A stretch of DNA of 61,732 nt, counting the filler. It is 3 parts of 3 records of this genome, joined end to end, with 100 filler letters (N's around TTAATTAATTAA, not from the genome) between each part and the next. Parts side by side here need not be neighbours in the genome. Positions count along the whole stretch, not along the records: positions 30,422 to 61,732 come from SRR31147125_73; 2 more parts are not named here. The stretch is one strand, 5' to 3'. The number at the start of each line of letters is the position of its first letter. Position 1 is the stretch's first letter. Under the pieces are notes generated by a model, which saw only the letters and a program-made list of their open reading frames with translations, made no database searches and was not told the DNA's origin. The position numbers and the translations under genes are program-made. Shown in pieces: positions 11,453 to 60,925 of this stretch.

Positions 11453-11552
11453 NNNNNNNNNNNNNNNNNNNNNNNNNNNNNNNNNNNNNNNNNNNNTTAA
11501 TTAATTAANNNNNNNNNNNNNNNNNNNNNNNNNNNNNNNNNNNNNNNNNNNN
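11453..11552. other. Artificial contig linker
   Basis: N44-TTAATTAATTAA-N44, which has stop codons in all six frames. Confidence 0.98.
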
Positions 11553-30321: not shown

Positions 30322-30421
30322 NNNNNNNNNNNNNNNNNNNNNNNNNNNNNNNNNNNNNNNNNNNNTTAATTAATTAANNNNNNNNNNNNNNNNNNNNNNN
30401 NNNNNNNNNNNNNNNNNNNNN
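30322..30421. other. Artificial contig linker
   Basis: N44-TTAATTAATTAA-N44, identical to the first linker. Confidence 0.98.
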
Positions 30422-31738
30422 GGGAGCTACGCCGTCACTTGTCACTCCAAAATTGAACAGCGTATTGCCTTTGGTCCTGGCTTTGAGCAGGGAGGCATTG
30501 TCATTGCCGGTATAGGTGTCAGTTAAGGGAAGAAGATGATTCAGATTAATGGTGGATAAAAGGTATCGTCGAGGGTTAGCGGTGCTATTGCCCATCAAAC
30601 TGCCTGCCCAAGCGGATACAGCGTTGAAAGTTTCCTGCACCGCTATAAAACCGGCACGGTTCAGAGCTTGAATCACATCCTTGATTTTTGTTTTTAACCG
30701 GCGAGAATCAGAATCAGTGATGATTATGGTGGTAGTCAGATAGCCATAAGCCGTCAGATCAGCTTGCACCGTTTCTTTGGCTTCCTCACACTCGCCACTC
30801 ATTTCCAAAGCATAGCCATTTTCTCTTCCCTCTTCGATACTTTCTGGAAAGAAGACTTCTTTAGCTAATCTGATTAATGAACGCCTTTGTCCGAAATATG
30901 CCTTGGAACGCCGTTCGATTTCCGACAAGGCTTCTGCCTTACCCAAAGCCAGCCAGCGAGTACACCACTGAAATCGAAAGCAAAGTTGCTTGAGAGCATT
31001 TAAGATCAGAGGCGTTGATTGTGGTGGGAACCGCAATATTGAGATCACGCCCAAGTATTCTGTTTCCCCCAATCCGTCCGTACAGATTTGTGGCTCAATC
31101 CCACCGATAAGGCTAGAATCGCTTAGGAAATCATACAAATACGGCTTAACAGGCACATTAACCGGAAAAGATTGCGTGGACAGTCGAGAATGCAGATAGG
31201 TCAGCGTTTCGGTCTCCGTTAATGGACGAATCTCCATAAAATGTGACAAGTGCCTGATGATCTCGGATGTCTGCCTTTTGAAGAAATCAAAGGCTTGCAG
31301 GTAATCATTTTCGTCTTTATGACTGCTAAACCATGCCCCCAATTTATGAGCAGTTGAAGAGGCTGGCAGATATGCAATGCCAAGAAAGTGTTGACCTTGG
31401 AAAATTTTCCCTAAGTTTGCGACCTCTTCATCATGGATGCTTGATAGTGCCAAGGAATCAAGAGAGTTTGAGGATTTGAGATACAGATCTGCTCGTTGGT
31501 GGGCGTATTCGAAGAATAGAGAGAAGTTAGAGCCGAAGCGAGAGAGAGTGTTATTCAGTTGGTAAAAGTAAGATTCGATTTGTTGATCGGAAGCGAACGA
31601 GAGGTCTGCCCCGCAGTATCGATAAATTCTAAGCCATGAACCATCTTTTTGTTGGATAGTGTTACCATCAAGAGGACAGAGCCACGGCAAGTAATTATGA
31701 AAGGGAGGTGGTTTAGCGTGTGATAAAAAGTTAAACAT
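30422..31738 (-). CDS. trbE: Conjugal transfer ATPase TrbE/VirB4, N-terminal part (truncated before Walker A)
   Basis: LPW..DGNTIQQKDGSW..RY.G.DL, YGYLTTTI and ETFNAVSAWAGSLMGN..ANPRR motifs; follows trbC-trbD. Confidence 0.9.
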
Positions 31739-31755
31739 TTATCCTCCTTAAAATA

Positions 31756-31775
31756 GAGACGGACTTAGCCGTCTC
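31756..31775. promoter_or_regulatory. Intercistronic stem-loop between trbD and trbE
   Basis: GAGACGG-acttag-CCGTCTC inverted repeat. Confidence 0.45.
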
Positions 31776-31790
31776 GTTTTATAAAGTGTA

Positions 31791-32033
31791 TCATGGTCGG
31801 TAATAGTCTGACTGTCGGATGTGTTCCCGTAGAATTTCCCAAAGATGTGGATCTTTGCGGAATATCAGGAATAAAATTAGGTATATAACTGCCAGTACTG
31901 GAAGTAGATCGAATGACTGTAATCCCAAGAAAAGAGCAGAAGCGATTGTTCCTAACAGGATTGCTACACGTCTCGGCAAGCCTCCCGCCATCATGCGTTT
32001 CCACAGGGATTGAAAAATTGGTGTTTCTTCCAT
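31791..32033 (-). CDS. trbD: TrbD/VirB3 family protein
   Basis: PIFQSL..MAGGLPR, two hydrophobic segments and KDP motif; GGAGG RBS; lies between the pilin and VirB4 genes. Confidence 0.88.
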   Translation of the reverse strand: MEETPIFQSLWKRMMAGGLPRRVAILLGTIASALFLGLQSFDLLPVLAVIYLILFLIFRKDPHLWEILREHIRQSDYYRP

Positions 32034-32060
32034 GAATTCCTCCAGAATGAGTGATGACGA

Positions 32061-32368
32061 TTAGCCACTGAATCCGAAAAAGAAAGACCGAATGATGCGG
32101 CTGAACAAGCTATAGATAAGCCAAATATTACTTTGATAGCTCTTTTGAAAACTCCATGGTTCTCCTCACTAAAAGCCAGTATCAAGCCGAACACGATGAT
32201 AGCGGCTACTGTGGCGACACGGAGAAAGGTGTTTTCCAGTGAGTCGGACAGAGTGGTGAGGGCGGAGTCCCAAGGAAGAGAGTCGGCTCCAAAAGCTTTT
32301 CTTTGAAAAGGCAAAAGAATGAAAATTGACATTTTAATCATCAAATCTATTATGCGTGTTTTATTCAT
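32061..32368 (-). CDS. trbC: TrbC/VirB2 pilin (frameshift at the A5 run, 32077-32081)
   Basis: Signal peptide, LPWDSAL and VIFGLSIA.SAASF motifs. One added base gives the typical end SFFGFSG* at 32061. GGAGG RBS before the ATG at 32368. Confidence 0.88.
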
Positions 32369-33530
32369 GAGATGCCTCCTTGCCCATATCGGCATAATCT
32401 AACTGACATACGCAGCTGCATTTTGATGCTTGCAGTCCTACATTTTCCCAAACTTTGGCGGATTCTTTGCAGAGGGCAATTTTACAATCTGAATATTTTT
32501 TGATTTCTCTGATTGCAAAACTAAAAATTTCTGCCCTTACTTCTTCTGAAAAACTGTATTTTCCAGCTTTTGGAGTCTTGGTGCCAGCAAAGAGTTTCGG
32601 CTCAAACATGGGTGCCATCTTCTCAATGTAGGACTTAAGATCCGACCCGCTTGTAAATATGCTGTTACGCATGTTAAAAAACCCCTTCTCGAACCGTAAG
32701 GTGCCAAGGGTTATTCTTTCCGGGAAAGTTTTCTCAAAGATTTTCTGAATGGTTTTGGCATATTCTTGTTTCCAGTTTGGAAAAGGAACTATCGGGTCAA
32801 GTCTTATCCTCAATGGATATCCTGCATTTTGAACTTTCTGTGCTGCCGTAAGTCGTCTTTCAAAAATGGGTGCTCCGATTTCATATTTTCTGGAGATCAT
32901 GTCATTGTTCATGCTCCACGCCACTATGGTGTGTTCGTTATGTTCAAGCTCTAAGATACCGTCCACGTTGTCGCTTTTGGTGAGCATAAAGAGATAGCCG
33001 TTTTCTGACTTTGCAAACCAAGGTATGAATGCCTCACCCGCACCTGTCAGGTGATCCAAGGCAAGAGAATCTGCAAGTTCACCACTATTGAAAATCACCG
33101 CTCCACTGTCTTTTTTTAATCTCTTCGCTAATTGCGATTTGATTTTGTCGTACTCTGCTTTTAAAGTGATATACGGAAAAGCAGCTCGATAAGTCAGTTT
33201 CAGGTAACACCAATCGCATCGGTAAGGACATCCATTTGAGGCAAGTTTTAAGCGGTCAAAGTGAGGACAAAGCATTCTGTCATCGGGCATTTCAAACTGG
33301 TCAACAGCGTTTCCTGCCGGGGAAATATATAGAACCTTTTTACCGGCAAGAATTTGGGGAAGCATTTTGGGTTCAGTACTCGAAATAATTTTCGATGTTT
33401 TTTTGATTGTCTCAGGTCTGCCATTATCGACCACATGCACCCATTTCACTTTTGCAGTTTCAATAATTCGTTTCGTTGAGGGATCGTTCTCGACGCTTTT
33501 ATGAACGATAATTTCTTGAGGTGTCAGCAT
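32361..33530 (-). CDS. Spore photoproduct lyase-like radical SAM protein
   Basis: GCPYRCDWCYL (CxxxCxxC), FNSGELADSL, LTKS, VAWSMN, EIGAP..RL.AA, RLDPI, TLGTLRF and LCKES motifs. Confidence 0.88.
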   Translation of the reverse strand: MLTPQEIIVHKSVENDPSTKRIIETAKVKWVHVVDNGRPETIKKTSKIISSTEPKMLPQILAGKKVLYISPAGNAVDQFEMPDDRMLCPHFDRLKLASNGCPYRCDWCYLKLTYRAAFPYITLKAEYDKIKSQLAKRLKKDSGAVIFNSGELADSLALDHLTGAGEAFIPWFAKSENGYLFMLTKSDNVDGILELEHNEHTIVAWSMNNDMISRKYEIGAPIFERRLTAAQKVQNAGYPLRIRLDPIVPFPNWKQEYAKTIQKIFEKTFPERITLGTLRFEKGFFNMRNSIFTSGSDLKSYIEKMAPMFEPKLFAGTKTPKAGKYSFSEEVRAEIFSFAIREIKKYSDCKIALCKESAKVWENVGLQASKCSCVCQLDYADMGKEASHE

Positions 33531-33605
33531 GTTTTCTCTCCTTTTGATTTCCTGTTTTTCGCAATGGCAAATGATACTGCCATGATAATTTTTAGGTTAG
33601 AGATT

Positions 33606-33626
33606 GGGCAGACGAAAAGCCTGCCC
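33606..33626. terminator. GC-rich stem-loop between the ParB-like and radical SAM genes
   Basis: On the minus strand GGGCAGGC-ttttc-GTCTGCCC. A T-rich tail is present only on the + strand. Confidence 0.45.
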
Positions 33627-33642
33627 GTTTCTATTTTCAAAA

Positions 33643-34456
33643 TTATTCTTTGACTAACTCATAAATTTTGTTGCACCGTAGGCACTTGGAATGAAAATTT
33701 GTAGCTTTGGACTCTGAAGTAGTATTTTTGTAAATGGCTACAACTTCAGAACAATTACATCGCCATATTTTTTGTTTGACGGGTGCACTTTTTTCTTTTT
33801 GGGAGATGAGGATTTTAGAAGTTTGGAAGCGGCATGAATGCTTTTATTGAGAGCGTTTTGTAATTTTCCCGCTTCTTTAAAATCTCTGACTTCAATTAAA
33901 TGTTCTATCTCTCTAATGACCTTGAGACCGTCCTCAGCAGTTTTACCAGCAAGACTTACTTTTTCTGCGGCTATGTCCCTCGCTTTACCCTTTCTTTTTT
34001 AGGTGGTGGAGAATTATCCACACCTTCCTTATCGCTTTTAGTGGATGATTTTTTCCCGCCGTCAATCTGCCTCTGTTTGGCAAGTTGGGTTTCAATTTCT
34101 TTATGAGCAGAATATTCTCGGATTTTCTGCTCGTTACTTTTCTCTCTCTGAGCATTCGCAGAAAGTAATATTTGTTTGAGAATAAGTTCGTCTTCTGTAT
34201 TGAGGACAATAGTCGGAACCATTTTGATATTGAGTCTGAGACAAATTTCCCGACGACGATGCCCGCTGATAATGGTTTTCTTTGGGGTAATGAGAAAGGG
34301 AGTTAATACGCCATTTTCTTTGATGTTTTCTGTCAGTTCTTCCGTGTCAGTCAGGCTTTCATTGCCGTACACCTGTTTGTTAAGAGGATGAGGTGTTAGC
34401 TCTTCCACATTGTGGAGGACAATTTGTTCTGATTGGATGTTATCGAGTTTGGACAT
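33643..34456 (-). CDS. ParB/Srx N-terminal domain protein with HTH and possible Zn ribbon (frameshift at 33995-34000, probably another near 33768-33799)
   Basis: LTPHPLN, IKENGVLTP and IISGHRR motifs. The shifted frames read GKARDIAAEKVSLAGKTAE, then WRCNC...KCLRCNKIYELVKE*. GGAGA RBS before the ATG at 34456. Confidence 0.8.
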
Positions 34457-34510
34457 TGTTTGGTCTCCTTTTTTTGTTGGAGCCAGCTTAACTGGCTCCA
34501 TGTTACTTGC

Positions 34511-34636
34511 TTATGATGCTTTGTAAGCTTTCTCTACCTCCTCAATCAGCACCATCACTTTTTCTAAGATTTCCATCAATTCTTCCAAAGTGACTATGTC
34601 AAGTTTTTGAAGTAAGACTTGAAGATCTTGGGACAT
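34511..34636 (-). CDS. 41-aa small helical protein
   Basis: Strong GGAGG RBS; MSQDLQVLLQKLDIVTLEELMEILEKVMVLIEEVEKAYKAS*. Below the ORF-track length cutoff. Confidence 0.6.
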   Translation of the reverse strand: MSQDLQVLLQKLDIVTLEELMEILEKVMVLIEEVEKAYKAS

Positions 34637-34697
34637 ATTTTTTCCTCCATTTAATGTTATTAGCTAAAGCTGTTCTTTCTAAATAAGTTGGGAGATA

Positions 34698-34718
34698 AGG
34701 GAGACTAAGAGTCTCCCT
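34698..34718 (-). terminator. Stem-loop after the 34726 gene
   Basis: AGGGAGACT-aag-AGTCTCCCT, a perfect 9-bp stem. Confidence 0.5.
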
Positions 34719-34725
34719 GCGGGAT

Positions 34726-35268
34726 TTAGGTTAAACTATTGAACCACGCTTTAAGGGCAGGCATTGTCAACGGCTGAGGGGCTGGAAGTGGGTAAGTAAA
34801 ATCGACCAATGTCTCATGGTTCGACTCGGACTCACCAACGGTCATAATAGTGACGGTAAAAAGATCATGAATAACCCCAAACAGCATTGAGTATCTCGCA
34901 TGTACAAATGCCTTATCGTCTTTTACTAAGCTCATTATTGTTTCCGTAGGCGTAATCAACAAAACATTAACAGGTTTAGGTTTATTGAGTGATTTTAGAA
35001 CACTATCAGCTGTGCAAATAGCAACCTGAAATGGTTGAAAAGGGGTGCTATACGGAATGGGAGGGGGTGTATGTGGATATGGTACATGATTAAACATGAC
35101 GAAAGTATTCCCGTCACCATCATATATAATAAGTAGAATATCGGAATTTCCACTATGAGCGTAAGCTTCTGCTAAAATATCGAAAGTTTGGATATCGGAA
35201 TTTGCTTGAGCTGTTGAGATGTTTTCAAGGATTATTGTCAGGGTATTATCGTTGGCTTCAGTTTTCAT
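34726..35268 (-). CDS. Hypothetical protein
   Basis: 180-aa ORF with an AAGGA RBS, co-oriented with the left-arm genes. Confidence 0.7.
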   Translation of the reverse strand: MKTEANDNTLTIILENISTAQANSDIQTFDILAEAYAHSGNSDILLIIYDGDGNTFVMFNHVPYPHTPPPIPYSTPFQPFQVAICTADSVLKSLNKPKPVNVLLITPTETIMSLVKDDKAFVHARYSMLFGVIHDLFTVTIMTVGESESNHETLVDFTYPLPAPQPLTMPALKAWFNSLT

Positions 35269-35523
35269 GAGTTTTCCTTATCTCGCTTGAAGCGATTTTT
35301 TTGTACTTGTTGTGGTTTTAGGGTTATAATGTGGCATTTTTTTGCTCTTATAATTAGATAAGTATTCGAAAATACATTGTAATTTTCCTTTTCTGATTTT
35401 TAACGCACTTCACCTGTTGGAGATGGGAAATGCGAAAAATGTTAATATTAAATGCTAAAAGGGATTCGTTTTTAGCGTGAGAACTGATTATTAAAAGAAA
35501 TTTTATTAATAAGAATTTATCAG

Positions 35524-35928
35524 TTAAGTTTCAGTCTCACCTGAAAGAAATCTTTCTTCTTCAAGTTGCCTTGCCCTAATTTTGCTCTCGTTAAGTATAA
35601 AGTTATCTCCTAATAATCTTTCAACTTGTGAAACTGATATATCCATTAATGACTCTATGGTTTTTAGCAATTCCAAATTATCATCAATTGATTTATTGAT
35701 TTTTTCCAAATGCAAAGGTATTTTGTCTTTGTTAAGCTCATGTTTTTTGTAAAAGTCATTCGTTCTTAGCCTCATTTGTGTTCTCAGTTTTTCAAGAGTT
35801 TCACGTTGCTTTAAAATAGAATATTTTTGCTTATCTGTTTCATAAGAAAATCCATTGTCTAAAGCTGAGATTTTGTGTTCACGTTTTGATAATTCCATAT
35901 TACATTTGGTTAAAAGATATAAATCCAC
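35524..35928 (-). CDS. Hypothetical coiled-coil protein
   Basis: Charged helical ORF divergent from the TPR gene. Start codon uncertain. Confidence 0.6.
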   Translation of the reverse strand: MDLYLLTKCNMELSKREHKISALDNGFSYETDKQKYSILKQRETLEKLRTQMRLRTNDFYKKHELNKDKIPLHLEKINKSIDDNLELLKTIESLMDISVSQVERLLGDNFILNESKIRARQLEEERFLSGETET

Positions 35929-36043
35929 AGTACTAAATGTTACCTAATAGTAAGTGAAAGTCAACCTCATTTTCCGAAAATGATATTTTATTTATAGTAA
36001 ATAAGTGCTTTTATTTCAATAGATTATCATTGGTATTCGAGGG

Positions 36044-38818
36044 GTGAAATACCAATTTGGAGAGTATTTTGAATCAAACAACAAACGCAGAAAAAATTTG
36101 GCAGGCGTTAAGAAAAAGTATTATGATGGGCAAGCTGTAGATGTTGAGTTAGAGCCTTTGAAATACTATTTTAAATTTGCGGGCAAGCGTGTGCGATTAG
36201 CTCGTGAAGTAAGCAGAAAAGATGGGAAAGATAGTTTAACCAGAGTTGAATTTATAAAAGAACGTTTGGTTATAAAGGCTCTCAAACGAAAAAAGCCTTA
36301 TTCTGAAGATACCCTTAAAAAATATGAAGAGGGGGCATTTACTCAACAAGAGCATGTTTTTCAGCAATATGAAGATGGGACAAGTAAGCCAAAACATTTT
36401 TTTGATTTTATAGAAAATCTTGCAAATGGATATTATAGAATAGATCCATGGCTATTCATTGATGAAAATATTAATGATATTAAATTTAAAAATATCGTAT
36501 TAGATAAATATGATAAAATTATTGGACAATTTCAAAGGCTTGCTCAACTTTTTCAAGAAGAATTGTTTTTATTTTGCGGTAGCGATGAATTTGAAAACAT
36601 TCACCCTAAACAAATTGCCCCCATTGAAAAATTCTTATCTAAAAATATTAAAAATGGTTTTGATGGAGCAAAATCAATGTGTAAAATTTCAATGGCTCTA
36701 TTTGTTATTTTATGTACAGGTTTAATAAAATCCAAAATTGCCTCAGCCTCAACAACCAAAACCGTCGTTGTCGGTGGCTCAATTCTTTTGGCATTAATAT
36801 TTTTCTACATTGGAGAACATTATTTCGATAAAAAAGAATATAATACCGCTGAATATTATTACACAAAAGCTGAAGATTTGTATCCTAAAGGAACAAAGGC
36901 TTTATTGATGCGTGGAATCATTAATATATTTCAGGAAGATTATAATGAGGCTCATGATGATTTTGACTCATACCTGACCAAGCATATAAATGACGAAACT
37001 GCACTATCATTAAATGCAATGACTTTATTAAAAATAAATATGCCAATAAAATCATTGCAAGAGTTAGAAAAAGCTTTAAAAGCTGATCCCAATAACCCGG
37101 GGATACTCAATTCATTTGGTATTCATTATGGGATAATGCAGGATTATAAAAAGGCATACCAATATTTCCAAAAGGCTTTAGATATTGAACCTGAATTTGA
37201 AGCCGCTTTTTACAACAGAGGTCTCTTCCGATTTTGGGAAAAAGATATAAAAGGGGCAAAAGAAGATTACAACAAAGTCTTACAAATGAATCCTAATGAT
37301 GTGATGACTTTAACAAATATGGGATTCATTTTTTATTTAGAAAAAGAATATCAAAATGCTATTTTATATTATTCAAAAGCTGTAAAAAATTATGACTTAA
37401 AGCAATTTTCTGTAGAGGGAAAAGCAAATTTGCATGCTGGGAAGGCTGCAATATACATGAATTTGAATCAGATGGGAAATGCACAAAATGAATTCAATTT
37501 AGCATTACAACTCACTCATGAAAGTTATACGCTTCTACTAAACTATGGAAGTTTTCATGCAAAGTTGAAACGATACAAACAGGCAGAAACGTATTACAAA
37601 AAAGCATTAGAAATAAAACCGAATTATGTAGGTGCATATAATGGTTTAGCAATTGTATATTATGAATGGGATATGCAGAAAAAAGCATTGGAAATGTATG
37701 AAACAGCACTGTCGATAAACCCTAATAACACGCAATCATTAACTGGTATAGGAATCTTATTGTGTGACATGGGGAAAATTCAATTCGGAATTGAATTTTT
37801 GACTAAGGCTTTAAGTGACGAACCTGAAAATGTAAGAGCTTTGTACTATAGAGGTAGAAATTATCTTAGGGGCGGAGATTTTCAACGAGGGTTGAAAGAT
37901 TTAAACCTCGTTCTTGAAATTACACCTGAATATGCCACTCGAATATATAGAGAACTTGCGAATGCTTATTTTAAAATTGAAAAATACAAAAAAACAATTG
38001 AGTATTGTTCAAAAATTTTAGAATTTGATCCTCGTAATATTATAACTCTTAAAAATAGAGCTCAAGCATATTTATTGACTAATAATGTGGACAAAGGACT
38101 CTCTGACTGTAACACTGCATTAGATATTAACCCCAATGATATAAAAATAAGAATGTTAAGAGTATTGTATTTCGATAAATTAAATAATATTTCTGCCGCT
38201 ATAGCGGATTTAACTTTTATAATAGAAAATTCCCTTGATAATGAAACTGCATTAGTGAATAGAGCAACTTTTTATATTCGGCTGAAAGACTATGAAAAGG
38301 CTCTGAGTGATTGTGATAAAGTCTTAGTAAAAAATCCTATACATTTGAAGTGCTTGGGGCGTAAAATTGAAATTTATGTTGCACTCAAGGATTATAAAAA
38401 GACCATAGAATACTGTGATCGTTTTTTACAACTAAATCTTGATAATGATGTGTTATTGTTTAAAGCGAACGCTCTTTTTAATTTGCGTCAATACAAAGAA
38501 TCTGCAAAAAATTTTCAACAGCTTATTGATAGAACGCCTGAAAATGAAATCTTATATGTTTATTTAAGTGTAGCCTATTTGGAGGACAAACAATATGAAA
38601 AAGCAATTGAGGTCAATAATCAATTACTGGAAATTAATCCCAATCATGCTGATGCGTTGAATAATCGAGATGTTCTTCAAAGAGAATTGAATGAGGAAAA
38701 AGAAAAACATAATGTTGTTACTGATAACTCAAATGAAAAACTGAATCCTGTTCTAAATTTTTCAAAGCAACAACGGACAAAAAATATGAACAAAACTGCA
38801 ACGGTAATAACAGAATAG
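36044..38818 (+). CDS. TPR-array protein with putative N-terminal XRE-like HTH and membrane segment(s)
   Basis: GKRVRLARE..LTRVEF..SEDTLKKYEEG; hydrophobic segments ISMALFVILCTGLI and VVVGGSILLALIFFYIG; then many A..Y.KAL.i.P repeats. Confidence 0.85.
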   Translation: MKYQFGEYFESNNKRRKNLAGVKKKYYDGQAVDVELEPLKYYFKFAGKRVRLAREVSRKDGKDSLTRVEFIKERLVIKALKRKKPYSEDTLKKYEEGAFTQQEHVFQQYEDGTSKPKHFFDFIENLANGYYRIDPWLFIDENINDIKFKNIVLDKYDKIIGQFQRLAQLFQEELFLFCGSDEFENIHPKQIAPIEKFLSKNIKNGFDGAKSMCKISMALFVILCTGLIKSKIASASTTKTVVVGGSILLALIFFYIGEHYFDKKEYNTAEYYYTKAEDLYPKGTKALLMRGIINIFQEDYNEAHDDFDSYLTKHINDETALSLNAMTLLKINMPIKSLQELEKALKADPNNPGILNSFGIHYGIMQDYKKAYQYFQKALDIEPEFEAAFYNRGLFRFWEKDIKGAKEDYNKVLQMNPNDVMTLTNMGFIFYLEKEYQNAILYYSKAVKNYDLKQFSVEGKANLHAGKAAIYMNLNQMGNAQNEFNLALQLTHESYTLLLNYGSFHAKLKRYKQAETYYKKALEIKPNYVGAYNGLAIVYYEWDMQKKALEMYETALSINPNNTQSLTGIGILLCDMGKIQFGIEFLTKALSDEPENVRALYYRGRNYLRGGDFQRGLKDLNLVLEITPEYATRIYRELANAYFKIEKYKKTIEYCSKILEFDPRNIITLKNRAQAYLLTNNVDKGLSDCNTALDINPNDIKIRMLRVLYFDKLNNISAAIADLTFIIENSLDNETALVNRATFYIRLKDYEKALSDCDKVLVKNPIHLKCLGRKIEIYVALKDYKKTIEYCDRFLQLNLDNDVLLFKANALFNLRQYKESAKNFQQLIDRTPENEILYVYLSVAYLEDKQYEKAIEVNNQLLEINPNHADALNNRDVLQRELNEEKEKHNVVTDNSNEKLNPVLNFSKQQRTKNMNKTATVITE

Positions 38819-39262: not shown

Positions 39263-41497
39263 CTAATTCTCTTCAGCTTTTTCCCACCGCTGTATTCTCT
39301 GGTTAATTTTCGGCAGTCCTTTTAAGAAACTCATTAATTCCGAATGCTTATCCACCCGATCCAACAAATGCCGTTCCGCTGATTTCCAAACCTCAAACAC
39401 ATCAGCAAGATACAAATTTGCCGATGGCGTCAATTTATCATCGGAATCAAGAAACTCCACACCAAACTCCGTTCCAACTTCATTCACCCGGTTACGCTGT
39501 GCATTGACCGTCAATTCCGAAAAATCCTCCCCAAAAGCAAGCTCCACCACTTTTTGATTTGTCTTCAAAACCGCTTCGCTAATCGAAGCAAAATCATCCT
39601 TAAATAGGCTCTCCCCATGCATTATCTTAATCATTTGAAGTGGATCGTTATTTTCGTTGCTATGATTTTTATCAATATGTGGTGCCGTAAAGGGAAAAAG
39701 CACACCAAGACCGGATTTTTGAGCAATATAGTCAGCTTGCAGAGTTTGGGAGCTTTCTACAAAATTATCGTGTTCATCCTTGGAAGCAAAAAGCACCTCA
39801 TCACCAATGGAAATTCTGGCAAGACTACCTGAGTCCAAAGGCAATGTTGCAACCAAAGAATGCTCTCTATTTTCGGTATCCATCGTAATTTCAAGTTGCT
39901 GTGAATTATCCGGCAAGGTCAGTAACCGGGCTTCGGCGTGAGGATTGAGTAAAGAGTCAATAGCTTGATTATCATCGATTAAGCGGGTAATGCTTGGAAT
40001 GTTGTGAAGCTCATTAATGGGGATGACTTCTGAGATTGCCGGAGGCGTGTTCAAGCGTTCGATTTCTCTTTTTTCTTCAGTTCTTTTTTCAGCGACATAT
40101 TCAGTGATGATATCATAGTCATGTGATACTGTTTCAAAAGCACTATCGTAATACTCATTGAAGAGCTCTTCGTTAACACCTTCTTCCGTGATAATTTCTC
40201 CCAATTTCCCGTCAGCTTCCAAATTTTCGATGGTGATTCGCAGGGTGTCTAATCCTCGAATTTCTGAGATGTGTTTATAAAAGACTTCCCTTTGTGCCGA
40301 TATTGACCGTCCAGTAATTTCTGCCATTTGTGCCAGAAACAAATCAAGGTAGGCGGTTCTTTCCTCCGGTGTTTCAAAGCTGTTTAACTTCCGGTTGATA
40401 CTGCGGTAATCTTCCAGTGTAATCCCTGTCGGTGTTTCAGTTTCATCTTCCGTTTTCTCCCGAATCCCCATCTCCAGTAAAAGGTTGTGAGTATCCTCAA
40501 TCTGAGCATTTCTTTGTTCATCTGTTTCCGCATTACCGTAATTGTCAGCTTGTATATCCCTTTCTATTTGGTTTTTTTGCTCATGGAGAATTTTAGCAAA
40601 AAGGCATCGGGCAACAAGCTCACGAGCTGGAATAGCTTCAGAGTTTTGAGCAATGACTTTCTTAGCAAGGTTGGGATGATTGGGGAGGATTTGTGGGGCG
40701 TATTCGCTTACCGAAATTGTTTTGTCTAAATTTTGAAAAAGTTGGTCATAAAGCTCTTTGTTATTTGCTTGTAGTGAGGCTATTTCTTCATTGAACTTTT
40801 TGATAGCCTGTTCTTTTTGGTTCTCGTTTAATTGTTCATACATGTCAGTTTTGGTGGCTGAATTTAAAATATTCTGCCCCTCTTTTGACTCTGTGAATGG
40901 AGGTTTTGAATCTTGATTATTCTTTGAATTTTCCGTTTCATTCTCGGAAAAAATGGTTAGATTTTTGGCAACGGTATTATGTGCTGGATTGTCTGCTGAT
41001 TGAGTTTTCTGATTAAAATATTGAGACAGCAATACCAAATTCACATTGCCATTATCATCTATGAGACCATCTGTTTTTCCCTCTGTTACAATGCGTTTGA
41101 GGGGTATGGAGATTTTAGCGGATTCCGTAATGGGTAAATCGACGGTCGCTCTGTATATTACATTCTGGATGAGGGATTCATTGTTGAGAGGGGAAAGAGT
41201 GGAGTTGGAGTTTTCCCTATTGCGGATTTGGGAAATGGTTATTTGGTGATCTGTTGAATCATCATCCAGTGCCGACAATAACGAGTCTCGGCTAAGGTTG
41301 TCAGTCGCATTTGATTTTTGTTCTTGTTCCTGTCTGGAAACGGATGTAAGCTTTTGCCTTTCCTCATCAATTAATCTGGCGGTCAAAAGAGTCAGCTTAT
41401 CATAGCCTCCTGTATCCTGTGACTGTTTCGGAGACTCCACCGATTCCAATGAGTCGGAAATGGATATATTCTTGCCTGCTAAACTTTCATTATTCAA
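39263..41497 (-). CDS. Large acidic hypothetical protein
   Basis: 744-aa uninterrupted ORF, rich in E/N/S, TTG start, no recognisable motif. Confidence 0.8.
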   Translation of the reverse strand: MNNESLAGKNISISDSLESVESPKQSQDTGGYDKLTLLTARLIDEERQKLTSVSRQEQEQKSNATDNLSRDSLLSALDDDSTDHQITISQIRNRENSNSTLSPLNNESLIQNVIYRATVDLPITESAKISIPLKRIVTEGKTDGLIDDNGNVNLVLLSQYFNQKTQSADNPAHNTVAKNLTIFSENETENSKNNQDSKPPFTESKEGQNILNSATKTDMYEQLNENQKEQAIKKFNEEIASLQANNKELYDQLFQNLDKTISVSEYAPQILPNHPNLAKKVIAQNSEAIPARELVARCLFAKILHEQKNQIERDIQADNYGNAETDEQRNAQIEDTHNLLLEMGIREKTEDETETPTGITLEDYRSINRKLNSFETPEERTAYLDLFLAQMAEITGRSISAQREVFYKHISEIRGLDTLRITIENLEADGKLGEIITEEGVNEELFNEYYDSAFETVSHDYDIITEYVAEKRTEEKREIERLNTPPAISEVIPINELHNIPSITRLIDDNQAIDSLLNPHAEARLLTLPDNSQQLEITMDTENREHSLVATLPLDSGSLARISIGDEVLFASKDEHDNFVESSQTLQADYIAQKSGLGVLFPFTAPHIDKNHSNENNDPLQMIKIMHGESLFKDDFASISEAVLKTNQKVVELAFGEDFSELTVNAQRNRVNEVGTEFGVEFLDSDDKLTPSANLYLADVFEVWKSAERHLLDRVDKHSELMSFLKGLPKINQRIQRWEKAEEN

Positions 41498-41606
41498 TTT
41501 CGGAGAAAAGTTGAAAATAAAAAAATACTATAATCTAACTTTATTTGATTAACGAATGTTTGGCAAGGGCAAGAATATGGGGAAAAAATTAATATTTTAT
41601 TAATAT

Positions 41607-42893
41607 TTAGCTTTTTTTATAAATTGTGACTTTTCGACCTGTGTTGTCTGCTTGTACCTCAAACGCTTTAAGACGTGGCATATGTTCAGATGTAAATTGG
41701 CTTAATAGAAAAATTTCCAAATACTCAAACATTGACCATGTTCGGGTTCTCATATCCATATGGAAAAATTTTTTACTTTGATTTGCGTAGATATAATCAT
41801 TTCTTATTGTCACGATGCTGTCCGTTGTGAATTCTGTTAAATCTGCTCCGCTAATATCTTCAATGAAAATCTTAACTACTTTTTTTGCTTTTAAGCCTAC
41901 TGCAAGAGCGTTGACAATTCGAAATCGGAACTCATCAAAAAGAGCCAGTTGACCATTACCTTTACGACGTTTCTTTTCTTCTGCCAAGGCTTTGAGTACA
42001 TAAGGGAGTGAGTCACGAAGTCTGTAACCATGTCCCAAAATCTGAGCCATTTGGTAATAAACGTCGGGTTTTATCTTTTCAAAGCCCTCTCTAATACTTT
42101 CTCCGACCTGCAAAATATCTTTGTATTTCCCTTTCCTATCGTTTTTGTAGAGATAGGATGTGATATACAAAGATGCGGTGTCCGCTGATCTGTCGTCAAA
42201 ACTCAAAATAGAGTCGCACAGGTAAGATGCTCCCAAGGTGTAATCATCAGCGTAAATTTTATTTGTTTCCGTAGCCCCTTTAATCAGTTTTTTAACGTGA
42301 CCTTGAGCCGTTTTCTCCAGCTTGGCTTTTTCGGTGTAATTGTCGGTAAATTCAGCCTGAATCATCAACTGCCCGACGAGGTGGTAACGCAAAAATCCGG
42401 CAGTCCAGTAATAAGGGCTGTTTTCCCCATCAAGTTTACCGGTTTTGTCATGTCCGTAGACTCTCATCTTACTGATGGCAATCAAGATCTCTCGGAAAAT
42501 ACTGACCATATTTTGGGGAATGTCTCTGTCAAAGCCGTTGAGTCGCAGAAAGACAGGCACGGTTTTGCCGTATTGAGTAAAAGTTTTGTGGGTATTCATC
42601 CAAATAAAATTGGCAATGGTTTCACTCATCGGGGTGAAATTTTTTGGATTATTCAGGGTGCCACTTTCTCTGTACTGAGTCACAAGGTCGGGATTGAAAA
42701 TGATGTCAATCGAATCCAATTCTTGAGTTTTCTTTTTCAGAAAAGGCTCACAAGTGAGCATTTTTTTAACGACAGTTTGTATAGACTCTGAGGCAAATAT
42801 TGGAGATGGCAGTAGGGAAAATGAGATAAAAGATATTGCAAAGAAAAAGACTGGAAGTGCTTGGAAAGAGTGGATTTTTTTATTTCTATTCAT
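41607..42893 (-). CDS. Exported hypothetical protein
   Basis: 428 aa with a signal peptide and GAGG RBS; no recognisable family. Confidence 0.8.
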   Translation of the reverse strand: MNRNKKIHSFQALPVFFFAISFISFSLLPSPIFASESIQTVVKKMLTCEPFLKKKTQELDSIDIIFNPDLVTQYRESGTLNNPKNFTPMSETIANFIWMNTHKTFTQYGKTVPVFLRLNGFDRDIPQNMVSIFREILIAISKMRVYGHDKTGKLDGENSPYYWTAGFLRYHLVGQLMIQAEFTDNYTEKAKLEKTAQGHVKKLIKGATETNKIYADDYTLGASYLCDSILSFDDRSADTASLYITSYLYKNDRKGKYKDILQVGESIREGFEKIKPDVYYQMAQILGHGYRLRDSLPYVLKALAEEKKRRKGNGQLALFDEFRFRIVNALAVGLKAKKVVKIFIEDISGADLTEFTTDSIVTIRNDYIYANQSKKFFHMDMRTRTWSMFEYLEIFLLSQFTSEHMPRLKAFEVQADNTGRKVTIYKKS

Positions 42894-43649: not shown

Positions 43650-43983
43650 CTTGAGCCGACAAGAATTTTCCAAGCTTGGTTTTGTCTGCTCAAATCTTGC
43701 AAGAATATTTTTATCATTAAATATATTGTCTGTTGATTCGGTGTCGAATCTGGCGAAGCATGACGAAAGTCAGCAAAGCTGAAGAACTGACATCTGAAAA
43801 TCAGATATAAGAGGTGGTTTCCGCATTGGTTACTTTAATCAGTGCGGAAACCGCAGAAGTGACCAGTTGCAGGGCAACTGAGCAAGATTGCTTTCAGGGA
43901 AAGCACCTGCGAGAACGCCTATCTTGGCAGGGGCAAGCCCCTACAACCCCATTCGCAGATTCCAATTACAGGGTAACCCCAAA
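43650..43983. other. Hairpin-dense non-coding region, candidate oriT (with or without a single-strand origin or ncRNA)
   Basis: At least eight short inverted repeats in series. CCTATCTTG at 43918-43926 resembles the RP4-type nic CCTATCCTG. Lies upstream of mobC-relaxase. Confidence 0.55.
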
Positions 43984-44166
43984 GTCTTTGGCTTATTTGG
44001 CTGTGTATTGAGCTCGTTTTAGAAGTGTTCATAAGAACTGTAGAAATCATTTTTAACGAGTGAGGTGTGGTTCCATAATATTTAGGAATCAGACTATCAT
44101 TTCTTTTTTTCCACAAAATCAATTCCTCAAAAATTACTGGCAGTACTGAAACAGGGTAACCCCAAA
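43968..44166. repeat. 16-bp direct repeat ACAGGGTAACCCCAAA, two copies
   Basis: Identical copies at 43968-43983 and 44151-44166. Confidence 0.9.
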
Positions 44167-44185
44167 TCGGTCTGCTTGTTTTGGC

Positions 44186-44917
44186 ATGTCGAAATTCTTC
44201 AAAAATCGATTTTTCTTTGTTGGCTCACCACGAAATCGTTTTGTTATTCTATATTCTAATTTCAATATCATGAAACATATATCAAACCTTATCACCAATA
44301 ACCGAGTCAACTTTAAAGATCTTATGAATCAGCATTACCAAGAGGATATCGCTGATAAAAATTCTTCAAAATCCACACAAAACAAAAGACACCGAGTGAA
44401 TTGTTCGTTTACGGCACTGGAATATGAACAGTTGTTAAATACCGCTCAATCTTATCACAGCAAGCCCTCAACTTTCCTCAAACAAGCCGCTCTTTCCTTC
44501 ATGGATAATAAACCAATCATGCCAGCTGGTTTTACTGAAAAGATGCAACGTCTGACTCAATTATCTGGTAGTATCGCAAACAATTTCCAGCAATTAATCC
44601 ATTTTGCCGGTGGCAATAAAACCAATGAGCAATATCTAAAAACCTGCAAGCAAAAGGTTTTTGAGTTGGAGGGGCAAGTAGAATTGTTTACTGATCAGGT
44701 AAGCTATTCGGCTTTTTTGGAGAATCGCACGGATCAACTGATTAGTTTTTTAAAAGTGTTGGCAGACAAGTTCAAAAATATTGTCTTTGAGCATTTGGAA
44801 ACAGGTAATGAGTTGAGTATTTCTGATTTTACGCAGATTGAAGATATTATGAAGCGATTGGTTAGAGGCATTGGAAATTACATCAACTATCAACGTTCTC
44901 TAAAAAAAGAGCAATGA
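44186..44917 (+). CDS. mobC: MobC-like relaxosome accessory protein
   Basis: RHH-like HRVNCSFTALEYEQL..PSTFLKQAAL and MobC-like SIANNFQQL. The stop overlaps the relaxase ATG (ATGA). The true start is probably further downstream. Confidence 0.7.
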   Translation: MSKFFKNRFFFVGSPRNRFVILYSNFNIMKHISNLITNNRVNFKDLMNQHYQEDIADKNSSKSTQNKRHRVNCSFTALEYEQLLNTAQSYHSKPSTFLKQAALSFMDNKPIMPAGFTEKMQRLTQLSGSIANNFQQLIHFAGGNKTNEQYLKTCKQKVFELEGQVELFTDQVSYSAFLENRTDQLISFLKVLADKFKNIVFEHLETGNELSISDFTQIEDIMKRLVRGIGNYINYQRSLKKEQ

Positions 44918-45795
44918 TAGTCAAATCATTTGGGCTGAAAACTCTAGCGTTTGATCGGGCTATCGGTTACGTCAGCCAAGCCAAGAAAACTTCTCCTGAC
45001 ACCCCTCCCGAACAGATTTTTGATCACCTGACCGATTCATCTCAGATGAAAACCCCGCCCATCTTGTGGAATCTGAAAGCTCATAGTTTCAATGCCAATG
45101 CCATAAAGCAAGAGTTCATCAACAACAGTCGGCACCTCAAATACCGTAAACGAGGCAATTTCCTGTATCACGAAATGATTTCTTTGAGCGATAAGGATAA
45201 AGAAAAAGTGACTCCCGCCATGCTGAACGATTTGGCACAGCATTATCTGGAACTGAGAGCCGGAAATGCTTTAGCCTTGGCGGTTGCTCATCATGACACT
45301 GATAATCCACATATTCATCTGATAATATCCGCAAATTACCGCAAAAGTGCTAAACGAATGCGATTGTCAAAGAAGCAGTTTCAGCAAATTAAGCTGAACT
45401 TGGAGGAATACCAACGCCGTCGCTATCCAGAACTGACTGCTTCACAGGTCAACCATGCGGGGCGTGATGCCAACAAACTCAAATACAGCCGAGGCGAGCG
45501 TGAAGCTATCCGGCGAATGGAGAAGAGTGGAAATCGGACATTAACCGTCAAAGAGCAAGTGAGGGAAACAGTTGGTCAGTGCTTTATCAAAGCCGGTTCA
45601 ATGGCTGAATGTCAGCGGAATTTGAGTCAGGCGGGTTTCCAGTTTTATCGACGAGGGGAAAAGACCGTGGGGGTGAGGCGGTATGAGGATAAACGGAAAT
45701 ATCGTTTGAGCACTTTGGGTTTAATGCCCCTGTATCAGTCTCGTGTTCAGGAATGGTCGATGAAGAAAGAAAAACAGATTTTTCCAGAAAGATAG
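44914..45795 (+). CDS. MOBP-type relaxase
   Basis: Motif I AIGYV, motif II YHEMISLS, motif III HHDTDNPHIHLII. Confidence 0.92.
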   Translation: MIVKSFGLKTLAFDRAIGYVSQAKKTSPDTPPEQIFDHLTDSSQMKTPPILWNLKAHSFNANAIKQEFINNSRHLKYRKRGNFLYHEMISLSDKDKEKVTPAMLNDLAQHYLELRAGNALALAVAHHDTDNPHIHLIISANYRKSAKRMRLSKKQFQQIKLNLEEYQRRRYPELTASQVNHAGRDANKLKYSRGEREAIRRMEKSGNRTLTVKEQVRETVGQCFIKAGSMAECQRNLSQAGFQFYRRGEKTVGVRRYEDKRKYRLSTLGLMPLYQSRVQEWSMKKEKQIFPER

Positions 45796-45969: not shown

Positions 45970-47388
45970 ATGAAGTACCTATGGAAAGCCATTCTATGCT
46001 TATGGCTGGCTTATAAAATCATCTTCGGCAAAGCTCGTTCCGAGGCTTATGGCAAAGCCTATTTCATGGACAGAATCGAAATGAACGTCCATTTTGCCAA
46101 TAGCAATCGAGGCATCAGGTTATCAGCCCGACACCGGCTATCCTTGCCAGTCAGCTATCAAAATTTATGCCTGATTGCTCCCACTGGAAGCGGTAAAACC
46201 ACTCGTTACGTGATTCCCAATATCCTACATGCTCAAACTTCCGTGGTCGTGACAGATCCTAGTGGAGAGATCTACCAGCACACCGCCGGACATCTCCATA
46301 ATCGGGGCTTCAAAGTGCAAGTGTTGGCTCCGGCAGATTTGGCAAACAGTCTGCGGTTTAATCCTTTGGCATTTTTCCAAACCACTTCGGAACTTAAACA
46401 AATTGCCACTATATTGGGGAACCTGAACAGTAGCGGTTCAGATCAATTTTGGATAACTGGAGCCGTTCAAATCCTGTTCATCTGTTTAGTGGCAGTAAAA
46501 AACACGGCTGATGAGAATCAATTACACATCGGCAGAGTCAGAGAATTATTGAATGAAGTCGGCAAAAATTTGTCAGGCTTTCCGCCAAGATTACTGAGAA
46601 AGCAATTGAAAACAGAACTGACTGCCCTTGACGAGTTCATGCACAAGAATTTGGATCCAAGGACTTTGGTGGATTATCAGGCGTTTATGGCTCAGGATTC
46701 AAAAGTAAGTTCTTCCATATTAGCCACCGCCCGTTCCGCTCTCGACCTGTGGTCAGATCCCGATATTGTTGAGTTTAGCCAGGGTAATAGCGTTGACATT
46801 GAGGCTTTGCGACGAGAAAAAACAATCATTTACATTATCGTACCGGAACACCAACTCAGCTACTTTGCTATCATCATCAACCTGTTTTATTCAGCTTGCT
46901 TTGAACACTGTATCCGGCATCCACAAGGCAATCCCGTGTTTTACTTTCTTGATGAGTTCGGCAATCTGCCCAAAATTCCTAATTTTGCTTCCATTGCGAC
47001 TACCCTGAGAAAAAAACGCTGTTCTCTATCACTGATCCTGCAAGACCTTTCCCAATTAACCGCCGTCTACGGCAAAGATGAAGCTCAAGCCATCTTTGGC
47101 GGTGGGATGCAAAACAAACTTTTCTTTGCCGGTTTGGATTTGGAAAGCAGTCGCTATCTGGAAAACGTGTTGGGAATGCGAACCGCCTATGATTTCATCA
47201 CCGCCACAGGTGAAATGGACTTACTGAACAACCTCCGCACCGTAGCCAAGCCATTACTACCCGCCTCGGAAATCAGGATGATGAAAGCCCATGAAGCTAT
47301 TTTGGTTTCCGGTTCATTGAAACCCGCCAAGTTCACCATGAAGCCATTTTATAAGAATAGGAAAATGCAGAGGTGGAGCCGAAAATAA
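45970..47388 (+). CDS. virD4: Type IV coupling protein, VirD4/TraG family
   Basis: N-terminal TM; APTGSGKT, VTDPSGE, RFNPL, FLDEFGNL and LILQDLSQL.AVYG motifs. Confidence 0.93.
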   Translation: MKYLWKAILCLWLAYKIIFGKARSEAYGKAYFMDRIEMNVHFANSNRGIRLSARHRLSLPVSYQNLCLIAPTGSGKTTRYVIPNILHAQTSVVVTDPSGEIYQHTAGHLHNRGFKVQVLAPADLANSLRFNPLAFFQTTSELKQIATILGNLNSSGSDQFWITGAVQILFICLVAVKNTADENQLHIGRVRELLNEVGKNLSGFPPRLLRKQLKTELTALDEFMHKNLDPRTLVDYQAFMAQDSKVSSSILATARSALDLWSDPDIVEFSQGNSVDIEALRREKTIIYIIVPEHQLSYFAIIINLFYSACFEHCIRHPQGNPVFYFLDEFGNLPKIPNFASIATTLRKKRCSLSLILQDLSQLTAVYGKDEAQAIFGGGMQNKLFFAGLDLESSRYLENVLGMRTAYDFITATGEMDLLNNLRTVAKPLLPASEIRMMKAHEAILVSGSLKPAKFTMKPFYKNRKMQRWSRK

Positions 47389-60154: not shown

Positions 60155-60925
60155 TTATTCTCCCCAAATCAGGTTGGCAAATTCGGGATGGTCGATAAAA
60201 GGATTGCGATTGTGCTGTTTTTCATAGATTCGATTATTGCGTCTTCGTTCCCAATCATCGACGGAATCTTGTTGATGCCATATTAATAAGGTGGAAGATT
60301 TACCATGCAGGGGGGAAGGATAAGTTGATACTCGGTCAGCTAATTCCAAATCAGGTGCTCCATCTCCACCTTCATAGCGGACAGCCATATAAAAAATCAT
60401 GCGAGCAACATCTCCTTTTACTGAGTCAGGCGGTTCCCATGAATCAGAATCAACTCGACATTGGGTTTCTCCGTCGCCGTCATTATAAAGGTCGCCACCA
60501 TTGTCAAAATCAAGATTACCTCGGCGTGAATTTACAGTAACATCAGTTGGGCGAAGATGATGCAAGTCAGTTCCGGCGGGAGGTCTTTTCCCGAATTTTC
60601 CATGAGATTTTGCCCATACATGTTCTCGATTCCACTGAGAAGCATTGCCTCCGTGAGAGGACTTCGGAAGTGTCCAACCAGAATAAAGAAGTTTGACATG
60701 ATCTGGATTATTCAAATCCTCATCTGTGTAGGCTAATAAATCCCAAACTTCACGGTACGAATATTCGGTGTGATTTTTGATGATGTCATGTAGGCGAGAT
60801 TTGAGGTCGATATCGGTTAAATTTTCAGTACCAGCATAATAATCAGTCGGAACGTCTGCCATTACACTGACGGCAAAAAGAAGATAAAAACTCAAATAAA
60901 GTAGAAGATGATTCAATCTATTCAT
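60155..60925 (-). CDS. Secreted endonuclease I family (His-Me finger) nuclease
   Basis: Signal peptide; WNREHVWAKS, DLHHLRP..VNSRRGN, KGDVAR..FYMAVRY and NRNPFIDHP motifs. Confidence 0.92.
   Translation of the reverse strand: MNRLNHLLLYLSFYLLFAVSVMADVPTDYYAGTENLTDIDLKSRLHDIIKNHTEYSYREVWDLLAYTDEDLNNPDHVKLLYSGWTLPKSSHGGNASQWNREHVWAKSHGKFGKRPPAGTDLHHLRPTDVTVNSRRGNLDFDNGGDLYNDGDGETQCRVDSDSWEPPDSVKGDVARMIFYMAVRYEGGDGAPDLELADRVSTYPSPLHGKSSTLLIWHQQDSVDDWERRRNNRIYEKQHNRNPFIDHPEFANLIWGE

Follow-up and report, generated by a model that had tools for sequence, protein, structure and literature searches.

A stretch of DNA of 61,732 nucleotides (the window) carries, on its minus strand, a radical S-adenosylmethionine (SAM) gene, here termed rSAM, between a ParB-like gene and the trb genes of an integrative conjugative element (ICE). 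On balance, rSAM probably encodes a DNA-directed radical SAM enzyme from an uncharacterised branch of the spore photoproduct lyase (SPL) fold, which works with the upstream ParB-like protein, the pair heading the trb operon of the ICE. The whole-length SPL fold, the kept flipping hairpin and the DNA-targeting partners found across the family together indicate a DNA substrate, and, given the ParB fusions in the family and the colinearity of the window genes, the best candidate for a working partner is the ParB-like gene upstream. For the net reaction we lean slightly towards targeted DNA modification rather than lesion repair, because the fusion partners are sequence- or site-specific DNA-targeting modules.

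N44-TTAATTAATTAA-N44 linkers, at 11453-11552 and 30322-30421, connect the contigs that make up the window, the TTAATTAATTAA between the 44-N runs being six-frame stop linkers. It is therefore a pseudomolecule of at least three contigs, and the genes left of 30322 (an ABC transporter and others) are no neighbours of the element. The last contig, which begins at 30422 and fills the rest of the window, carries the rSAM locus, with the following minus-strand order:

33643..34501, minus: ParB-like gene with a ParB_N domain (PF02195, E 2.7e-07) and a GHRRR arginine patch
32361..33530, minus: SPL-fold radical SAM enzyme of 389 aa (PF20903 SPL, E 1.4e-31)
32061..32395, minus: trbC/virB2 pilin gene (PF04956, E 9.1e-13)
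31791..32033, minus: trbD/virB3 (PF05101, E 9.5e-10)
30422..31738, minus: trbE/virB4, N-terminal part only (NF010447 TrbE, 276.7 bits, profile positions 14-438 of 815)

The rSAM gene starts with ATG, with AAGGAG 7 nt before it, and its product scores 110 bits against Pfam PF20903 SPL (cut-off 27). Besides this family and PF04055, the latter below threshold, Pfam found nothing else in the protein, including no SPASM/twitch or peptide-recognition domain. Against the PDB, phmmer retrieved SPL chains only, at E 4.6e-21 to 5.6e-20 over residues 98-281. Foldseek, searched with an AlphaFold2 (AF2) model built from a 27-sequence alignment, placed SPL structure 4fhf at the top (E 1.8e-21, TM score 0.69/0.79); the six best matches were all SPL (E 1.8e-21 to 3.2e-20), the next stood at 1.4e-03, and maturases of RiPPs (peptides made on the ribosome and modified after translation) appeared only at E 1e-3 or weaker. 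Alignment of the family profile with a true clostridial SPL by hhalign gave a probability of 99.5% over 319 columns, N-terminal domain included. The likeness to SplB (TIGR04070; structures 4FHC-4FHG, 4K9R and 4RH0) covers the whole-length fold with its N-terminal domain and the CX3CX2C motif, at an identity of 27% (hhalign, clostridial SPL) or 20-21% (Foldseek).

The enzyme is nevertheless not a canonical SplB, as the initial annotation of this DNA had held. On NCBIfam TIGR04070 it reaches 121.7 bits, over profile positions 82-254 only, against an equivalog cut-off of 400 and 547 bits for the true clostridial SPL reference, and the position of Cys140 is occupied by Glu, so that this identity was rejected. 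Its score on TIGR03886 lyase_spl_fam is 42.2 against a cut-off of 437.55, and none of the curated NCBIfam models reaches its cut-off. TIGR03886, Rv2578c, PA0069 and radical SAM mobile pair B are weak matches, all of them uncharacterised SPL-related radical SAM families and some tied to mobile DNA; with the COG1533-type models, too, the window enzyme scores far below every cut-off, and its clade has no curated model.

Residues were mapped through the phmmer alignment and named after Geobacillus thermodenitrificans SPL as given in the available part of PMC3467042. The cluster motif CX3CX2C (C101/C105/C108) is invariant. The SAM-binding Lys174 and Ser195 are kept as K185 and S206, Tyr98 as Y109 and Glu268 as E281, and the hairpin/Lys309 region, GKF in clostridial SPL, is kept as GKY (residues 323-325) according to hhalign, so that SplB and the window enzyme share a GK[YF] hairpin motif. 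Three residues differ: Cys140, the H-donor, is replaced by E151, Tyr96 by W107 and Arg193 by A204. Of the residues that contact the photoproduct bases, Arg193 is Ala204, Glu268 remains as Glu281, and the Tyr339 region is unalignable and replaced by a Cys-rich tail. The segment FNSGELAD had been aligned by eye with the H-donor site, and phmmer agrees, pairing it with FEAASTSD/FEAAATSD in the C140S and C140A chains of G. thermodenitrificans SPL; Glu151 therefore occupies the H-donor position. The accompanying remark that there is no Cys holds at this aligned position and fails elsewhere, for an invariant C88 sits in the loop of the clostridial donor Cys, with which MAFFT aligns it and hhalign does not. 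Clostridial SPLs lack Cys140 and carry the donor Cys in an upstream loop, according to the same part of PMC3467042.

A word-indexed search found 829 proteins at E <=1e-3. The best 120 of these are 62-81% identical to the window enzyme and about 385 aa long, with few named members (Desulfamplus, Desulfobacula and delta proteobacterium NaphS2). Named relatives at the loci described below come from Desulfamplus, Desulfobacula, Desulfosarcina, Desulfatiglandales and Syntrophobacteraceae, and protein-atlas clusters of the enzyme are named 'SPL family radical SAM protein', with Thermodesulfobacteriota as the commonest phylum. When the family profile was run with HMMER over 1.84 billion representatives, 2279 matched at E <=1e-3 and 368 at <=1e-30, the 368 being representative clusters at 50% identity and hence a lower bound for the clade. 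All 27 subfamily members carry nine invariant Cys (C88, C101, C105, C108, C349, C354, C371, C373 and C375), and the added C-terminal CSCVC pointed out at the outset is present and invariant in 27/27.

Wider conservation was read from a MAFFT set of 110 (domain-covering representatives, six subfamily members, the window protein and four references, with two intein-bearing proteins excluded). Here C88 is conserved in 102/110, E151 in 95/110, C354 in 104/110, C373 in 90/110 and C375 in 89/110. C349 and C371, found in only 11/110 and 20/110, are therefore peculiar to the subfamily of the window enzyme. C354, C373 and C375 are missing from the true SPL of this alignment; together with Glu151 and the loss of Arg193, this triad sets the wider clade apart from SplB. 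By predicted secondary structure, the last barrel strand ends with one Cys of the triad and the C-terminal tail holds the other two, and the conservation of these three extra Cys suggests a second metal or iron-sulfur site. The clade signature (Glu at the Cys140 position; Cys 354, 373 and 375) is complete in the window protein, and all 17 diagnostic residues are intact, indicating that the gene is under selection here. A rough neighbour-joining tree, made with Biopython, places the window subfamily as sister to the fusions rSAM-ParB and DUF488-rSAM; a second large subclade holds ParB-rSAM, HsdS-rSAM and winged helix-turn-helix (wHTH)-rSAM forms. PLSDB contained true splB or distant 'SPL family' genes only (<33% identity) and no clade member; a cultured-phage collection and IMG/VR held no relatives of the window enzyme, and PADLOC had no match for the enzyme or for fused forms outside their restriction-modification (R-M) parts.

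A second, more distant SPL-like paralog of 360-365 aa, without the C-terminal CxC, occurs in Desulfosarcina and Desulfatiglandales genomes (L110:1267-3347 and L109:566-3687) that also carry the window-type enzyme. In one of them the stop of a ParB-like gene meets the paralog start; in the other the paralog lies between a DEDDh exonuclease and a staphylococcal-nuclease homolog.

ParB, whose gene the initial annotation had proposed to express together with rSAM, is the partner that recurs in fused forms. A Pfam scan of the 26 longest representatives from the profile scan found ParB_N fusions in 11, in both domain orders and often with HTH_ParB: rSAM-ParB in 5/26 (P0122, P0128, P0129, P0131, P0170) and ParB-rSAM in 6/26 (P0192, P0194, P0201, P0210, P0227, P0269). 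DUF488-N3a (P0123), a type I specificity domain (HsdS/MAD5-like; P0207), a wHTH (P0167) and sigma-70 r3/r4 (P0212) each occurred in 1/26, an intein or LAGLIDADG domain in 2/26 (P0203, P0260), and SPL plus rSAM domains alone in 9/26. In a second set, of 24 relatives of at least 682 aa, 11 combined rSAM with ParB_N and HTH_ParB (PF20903+PF02195+PF17762) at 40-55% identity to the window enzyme. The others were a DUF1848 fusion (1/24, 67% identity), long extensions with no other Pfam family (7/24), a MAD2-like methyltransferase with a MAD5-like specificity and an SPL-like domain (1/24, P0293), an N-terminal TcmP ('three-Cys-motif partner protein', TIGR04474; 3/24, P0294-P0296) and a glycosyltransferase (1/24).

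In the window, a ParB_N gene lies directly upstream of rSAM on the same strand. It resembles the ParB part of fusion P0201 most closely (33% identity over 139 aa, E 2.7e-17), and the C-terminal rSAM part of P0201 matches the window enzyme (33% over 320 aa, E 3.8e-45). Since both parts match in order, the adjacent window genes are colinear with the fusion and represent its split form. Both the window ParB and P0201 weakly match the ParB-like N-terminus of a type II methyltransferase model in PADLOC.

As given in the window, the ParB-like gene consists of a 176-aa open reading frame (ORF) at 33971-34501, followed by two more open frames. A second assembly comes from a public run, possibly of the window's source sample, in which 97% of the words sampled from 31700-34600 occur. 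One of its contigs, 36.5 kb long, spans 30422-36100 in a single piece and reaches about 15 kb past either end. Over this span it differs from the window by four one-base insertions only, in homopolymer runs, behind 32076, 33788, 33994 and 34468; no difference falls in the rSAM gene or at the rSAM/trbC junction. The insertions behind 33788, 33994 and 34468 coincide exactly with the frame changes in ParB; the gene is then a single frame of about 271 aa that runs from 34456 to 33643 and closes with a zinc-ribbon-like CxC...CxxC tail. That behind 32076 ends trbC at 32061, where the window ORF runs to 31991, and abolishes an odd 43-nt trbC/trbD overlap. Because each extra base restores a longer or more regular frame, the window appears to carry homopolymer errors and the genes to be intact; such errors probably occur elsewhere in the window too. 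These frame repairs rest on a second assembly of probably the source sample, not on a second sample.

Under the proposed mechanism, the ParB-like nucleoside triphosphate (NTP)-switch protein would load on element DNA and bring or hold the enzyme there. The [4Fe-4S] cluster on C101/C105/C108 would cleave SAM to give a 5'-deoxyadenosyl radical, which could abstract H from a pyrimidine that the conserved GKY hairpin flips out of the DNA, with Glu151 and/or Cys88 completing the chemistry in place of the Bacillus-type Cys and the triad C354/C373/C375 holding a putative second metal or iron-sulfur site. A more specific version seems doubtful: ParB would load at an element site, spread and confine the enzyme to the element's own DNA, so that an unusual radical-installed base modification, made in the donor just before transfer, would act as a Mom-like, cis-targeted, pre-emptive anti-restriction measure. 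If true, this would be the first ParB clamp serving as the targeting subunit of a DNA-modifying radical enzyme.

The overlap of the rSAM stop with the trbC start, reported in the initial annotation, is confirmed and is the same in the second assembly. The likely trbC start is an in-frame ATG at 32368 with AAGGAGG 6 nt upstream, and it overlaps the rSAM stop by 8 nt (CAT GAA TAA / ATG AAT AA, ATGAATAA); a longer trbC ORF, with its start at 32395, is also present. A consensus scan found no promoter-like or terminator-like site in the rSAM-trbC interval on the minus strand, and over 30422-36100 the promoter and terminator counts did not exceed those of shuffled sequence. With the overlapping start at trbC, translation of the pilin and pore genes would always bring production of the enzyme with it. 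That the enzyme is co-expressed with the transfer genes, as had been proposed, is the plain reading of the 8-nt overlap and of the internal Shine-Dalgarno site in the rSAM 3' end.

The search for the same linkage elsewhere covered 104 other loci (24 genome and 80 metagenome loci) of the ~385-aa, mostly Thermodesulfobacteriota subfamily. The genome loci derive from 52 pattern matches, of which 25 were confirmed and one 25%-identical Clostridium gene was set aside; the metagenome loci are the best 80 of 447 confirmed from at least 600 pattern matches. Flanks reached up to 8 kb, the median locus length was 7.4 kb, and 7 loci had fewer than 2 neighbour ORFs. The tblastn queries were the window TrbC, TrbD, TrbE part and ParB and eleven other element proteins, and the TrbE query picks up homologs at 25-34% identity. 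In all 104 loci, none of these proteins, TrbC, TrbD and TrbE included, was encoded beside rSAM, the lone stray match being to the tetratricopeptide repeat (TPR) protein. Downstream of the gene in the closest relative (81% identity) there is no trbC, and over 640 bp no ORF exceeds 56 aa. None of 5 rSAM-bearing genomes had a TrbE match, and 6 of 401 sampled same-order genomes had one at E <=1e-20, all at <=34% identity. Upstream of the T4SS (type IV secretion system) genes, rSAM was found at 0/7 related loci, and a VirB11-type ATPase stood there in 1/7 of these distant Trb loci. A pilin or T4SS linkage as a family trait is rejected (0/104 loci, 0/5 genomes, 0/7 T4SS loci), and with it the view of the enzyme as part of the transfer machinery; the rSAM-trbC coupling is local to this element, not a family property. 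The association of homologs with trb and parB genes raised in the initial annotation accordingly divides: for trb it fails, and for ParB it holds in the form of fusions (11/26 and 11/24), adjacency being found in 3/104 loci.

The genes trbC, trbD and trbE are closely packed in that order. TrbE is truncated at the contig end (30421), with about 438 first codons present, and the second-assembly contig continues past this cut. No trbB was seen in the window, in which the operon itself is cut at the contig end. A relaxase, a coupling protein, a Toprim protein and a serine recombinase on the rSAM contig define the setting as an ICE, and the ordered VirB2/VirB3/VirB4 homologs, together with the relaxase and coupling protein on the same element, correspond to a Trb/VirB-type T4SS:

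44914-45795, plus: MobA/VirD2 relaxase (Pfam, PF03432)
45970-47388, plus: VirD4/TraG coupling protein (Pfam, PF02534)
47461-48861, plus: Toprim protein (Pfam)
49947-51812, plus: large serine recombinase (Pfam)
56507-59597, minus: Gabija pair GajB (E 9.1e-127) and GajA (E 2e-175), found by PADLOC beyond the serine recombinase

Several further features accompany these genes. An Endonuclease I gene follows the Gabija pair at 60155-60925. Between the ParB-rSAM-trb block and the relaxase block lie a 924-aa TPR protein (36044-38818, plus strand) and two large proteins of 744 and 428 aa (39263-42893, minus strand) with no family match. A 31-nt direct repeat (43968-43998 / 44151-44181, 77% identity, core ACAGGGTAACCCCAAA), just 5' of the relaxase-accessory and relaxase genes, may mark the oriT region. 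A GC-rich hairpin with a T-run on both strands, at 31756-31775, falls within the operon in the trbD-trbE interval; it may act as an attenuator or be a match by chance.

Gene neighbourhoods in the family are very varied. The 436 neighbour proteins (up to three per side) include 232 singletons. DUF488 is a neighbour in 10/104 loci, and in 6 it lies directly upstream on the same strand. D5-type primases occur in 5 loci, a second COG1533-like rSAM in 5, and DUF1848, ArdC-N and Cdc6 in 3 each; M78 peptidases, HU, SSB, ParA and ParB are further recurrent neighbours, as are PrimPol primases. In seven loci (L009, L072, L073, L082, L096, L098 and L099) an 83-97-aa protein without Pfam or NCBIfam match, MLDD..VEQV.PYVTETVWIGKPN..., is encoded 60-66 nt downstream of rSAM, and is a possible small partner in its branch. 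Single settings include lexA-imuB-dnaE2, divergent from rSAM and with M78, in L011, PolB beside rSAM in L005 and L028 (directly upstream in a single-locus setting), and rSAM directly downstream of hsdS-yhcG-hsdR in L002; transposases, an integrase, an MCM helicase and a deaminase occur in single loci elsewhere, and Mrr, DruA and DUF4145 are further neighbours in other loci. Classified by hand and with no background control, 64 of the 104 loci have a gene of at least one of three kinds: a mobile-element hallmark (31 loci), defence (7), or DNA/RNA repair or replication (39). The suggestion that rSAM might prove a one-off insertion among chromosomal homologs unlinked to mobile elements is thus borne out for the trbC coupling, and is at odds with the 31/104 loci that have mobile-element hallmarks nearby. 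A 7-mer count over 99 upstream regions found no shared motif such as a LexA box, only Shine-Dalgarno-like words.

At L041:5413-5889 and L102:5413-5889 the DUF488 gene directly upstream starts with MKKWKPQEIIVNEKVK, the N-terminal signature of the rSAM family, which looks as if a DUF488 cassette had been inserted into the rSAM 5' end with duplication. The DUF488 neighbour gave no significant match to solved structures.

Several observations weigh against a ParB-partnered, DNA-directed enzyme as set out above. Most subfamily genes stand alone (ParB in 3/104 loci by a ParB query from locus L007 and in 0 by the window ParB; 232/436 neighbours singletons), and ParB is therefore no obligate partner. 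In the window itself, 112 nt separate the ParB end from the rSAM start, a word-index search returned no longer relatives of the window ParB (weak evidence), and no convincing parS-like repeats were seen on the element; this ParB could alternatively regulate the trb operon in the manner of KorB. On the enzyme side, the AF2 model has a mean pLDDT of 71.2 and is low at 74-116 and 370-389, hhalign puts C88 four positions off the clostridial Cys, beside a five-residue insertion, the second metal site is read from conservation only, and the neighbour-joining tree is crude.

A less probable alternative is a lesion-repair lyase that splits pyrimidine dimers of a spore-photoproduct-like or other radical/UV type in anaerobes; as cargo it would protect the element or its host, with ParB helping it to scan DNA or unrelated to it. 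SPL is both the closest solved structure and the closest characterised family, the SAM-binding residues, the Tyr98 and Glu268 equivalents and the hairpin motif are retained, and C88 lies, in the MAFFT alignment, in the clostridial H-donor loop described in the available part of PMC3467042. The SOS and repair neighbours (lexA-imuB-dnaE2 with M78 in L011, PolB in L005 and L028) point the same way, and Aravind and colleagues tied 'SplB-like radical SAM photolyases' to SOS modules in the available excerpt of PMC3765255. However, the score of 121.7 bits is far from the 400-bit equivalog cut-off, the dihydrothymine-binding Arg193 is Ala204, a Cys motif stands in place of the C-terminal Tyr339 region, Glu151 is retained in 95/110 clade members, and hhalign leaves C88 unpaired with the clostridial Cys. 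Moreover, the hosts are non-sporulating anaerobes of dark sediments, and fusions to specificity subunits, helix-turn-helix (HTH) domains and ParB suit a sequence- or site-targeted activity better. It is unlikely that the arrangement in the window is mere chance, with ParB acting as a KorB/BisD-type trb regulator, an unrelated rSAM inserted before trbC and the overlap reflecting shared transcription only. The trbC coupling recurs in no other locus found, subfamily contexts are very varied and often include transposases or integrases, and transfer genes are known to have regulators of the ParB family (KorB, and BisD in the available text of 10.1101/2025.10.10.680097), all of which would fit such chance; but the window ParB is closest to the ParB part of a ParB-rSAM fusion with which the two genes are colinear, fusions recur in the clade in both orders, and 17/17 diagnostic residues are intact.

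Highly unlikely, in our judgement, is a nuclease-free defence or exclusion effector, a radical enzyme that damages or marks incoming foreign DNA and is used by the element against competitors. The fusions with TcmP and with methyltransferase and specificity modules of MAD2/MAD5 type would be in keeping with it, as would the position directly 3' of hsdS-yhcG-hsdR in L002, the Mrr, DruA and DUF4145 neighbours elsewhere and the presence of Gabija on the window's rSAM contig. Against this, PADLOC recognised neither the enzyme nor its fused forms beyond their R-M parts, a defence gene is among the near neighbours in 7/104 loci only, and no immunity or self-protection partner is evident. Modification of the pilin or of another T4SS protein by a peptide-modifying radical SAM enzyme, which the initial annotation had already ranked as the less likely option, is hardly credible, and very unlikely as a family function. 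Translational coupling to trbC is the sole point in its favour, whereas none of the 104 other loci has a pilin or other Trb gene nearby, the protein lacks any SPASM, twitch or peptide-recognition domain in Pfam, its full length aligns to the DNA enzyme SPL, and its fusion partners are all DNA-binding modules. The DNA-directed role suggested from the start for the enzyme is backed by the SPL fold and by the fusions to DNA-targeting modules.

Compared with known systems, the window locus combines familiar parts in a different arrangement. SplB is typically found in endospore formers, in a splA-splB operon. The window gene differs in having no splA and a ParB-like gene upstream, its hosts being non-sporulating Thermodesulfobacteriota, and its clade has ParB, DUF488 and TcmP partners. 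In IncP trb operons trbB holds the position before trbC. The trbC-trbD-trbE order and tight packing of the window resemble an IncP/Ti-type trb operon, whereas before the window trbC the place of a VirB11-type ATPase gene is taken by that of an SPL-like enzyme. A precedent for an SPL-fold enzyme reshaping DNA base modification on a mobile, restriction-exposed genome is gp53 of phage M6, an SPL-like radical SAM isomerase in thymidine hypermodification, likened here by its description in the available part of PMC8989533; its cluster holds a 5-hydroxymethyldeoxyuridine (5-hmdU) kinase, an aGPT-Pplase and a pyridoxal phosphate (PLP) enzyme, none of which lies near the window enzyme. Among the pairings of the ParB-CTPase fold (ParB-methyltransferase, DndB, KorB and BisD) in the available text of 10.1101/2025.10.10.680097, the arginine-patch ParB N-domain, the mobile element and the SAM-using partner are shared features, but the window partner is a radical SAM enzyme, and NTP binding, parS and clamping of the window ParB are presumed by analogy only. 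The main text of that preprint contains neither 'radical' nor 'lyase'; its supplementary fusion tables, possibly relevant, were outside this search. Full-text literature searches, with the same supplements outside their scope, found no description of a ParB-linked or T4SS/conjugation-linked SPL-like enzyme, in agreement with the earlier statement that no such system was known.

Neither a ParB-partnered clade of SPL-like radical SAM enzymes, which belong to a familiar enzyme type, nor its occurrence on a conjugative element is described in the papers searched. SPL is the textbook radical SAM enzyme acting on DNA. The only other DNA-acting case met was gp53 of phage M6, as described in the available part of PMC8989533. 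If the clade acts on DNA, radical chemistry on DNA would be widened well past spore repair, and, should the partnership be true, ParB-fold switches would gain a new job, the delivery of an enzyme. If the enzyme is only a repair lyase carried as cargo, the finding would be a modest extension of a known family. Its placement at the head of a conjugation operon offers a tractable setting in which to ask whether element DNA is altered or protected while the transfer genes are on.

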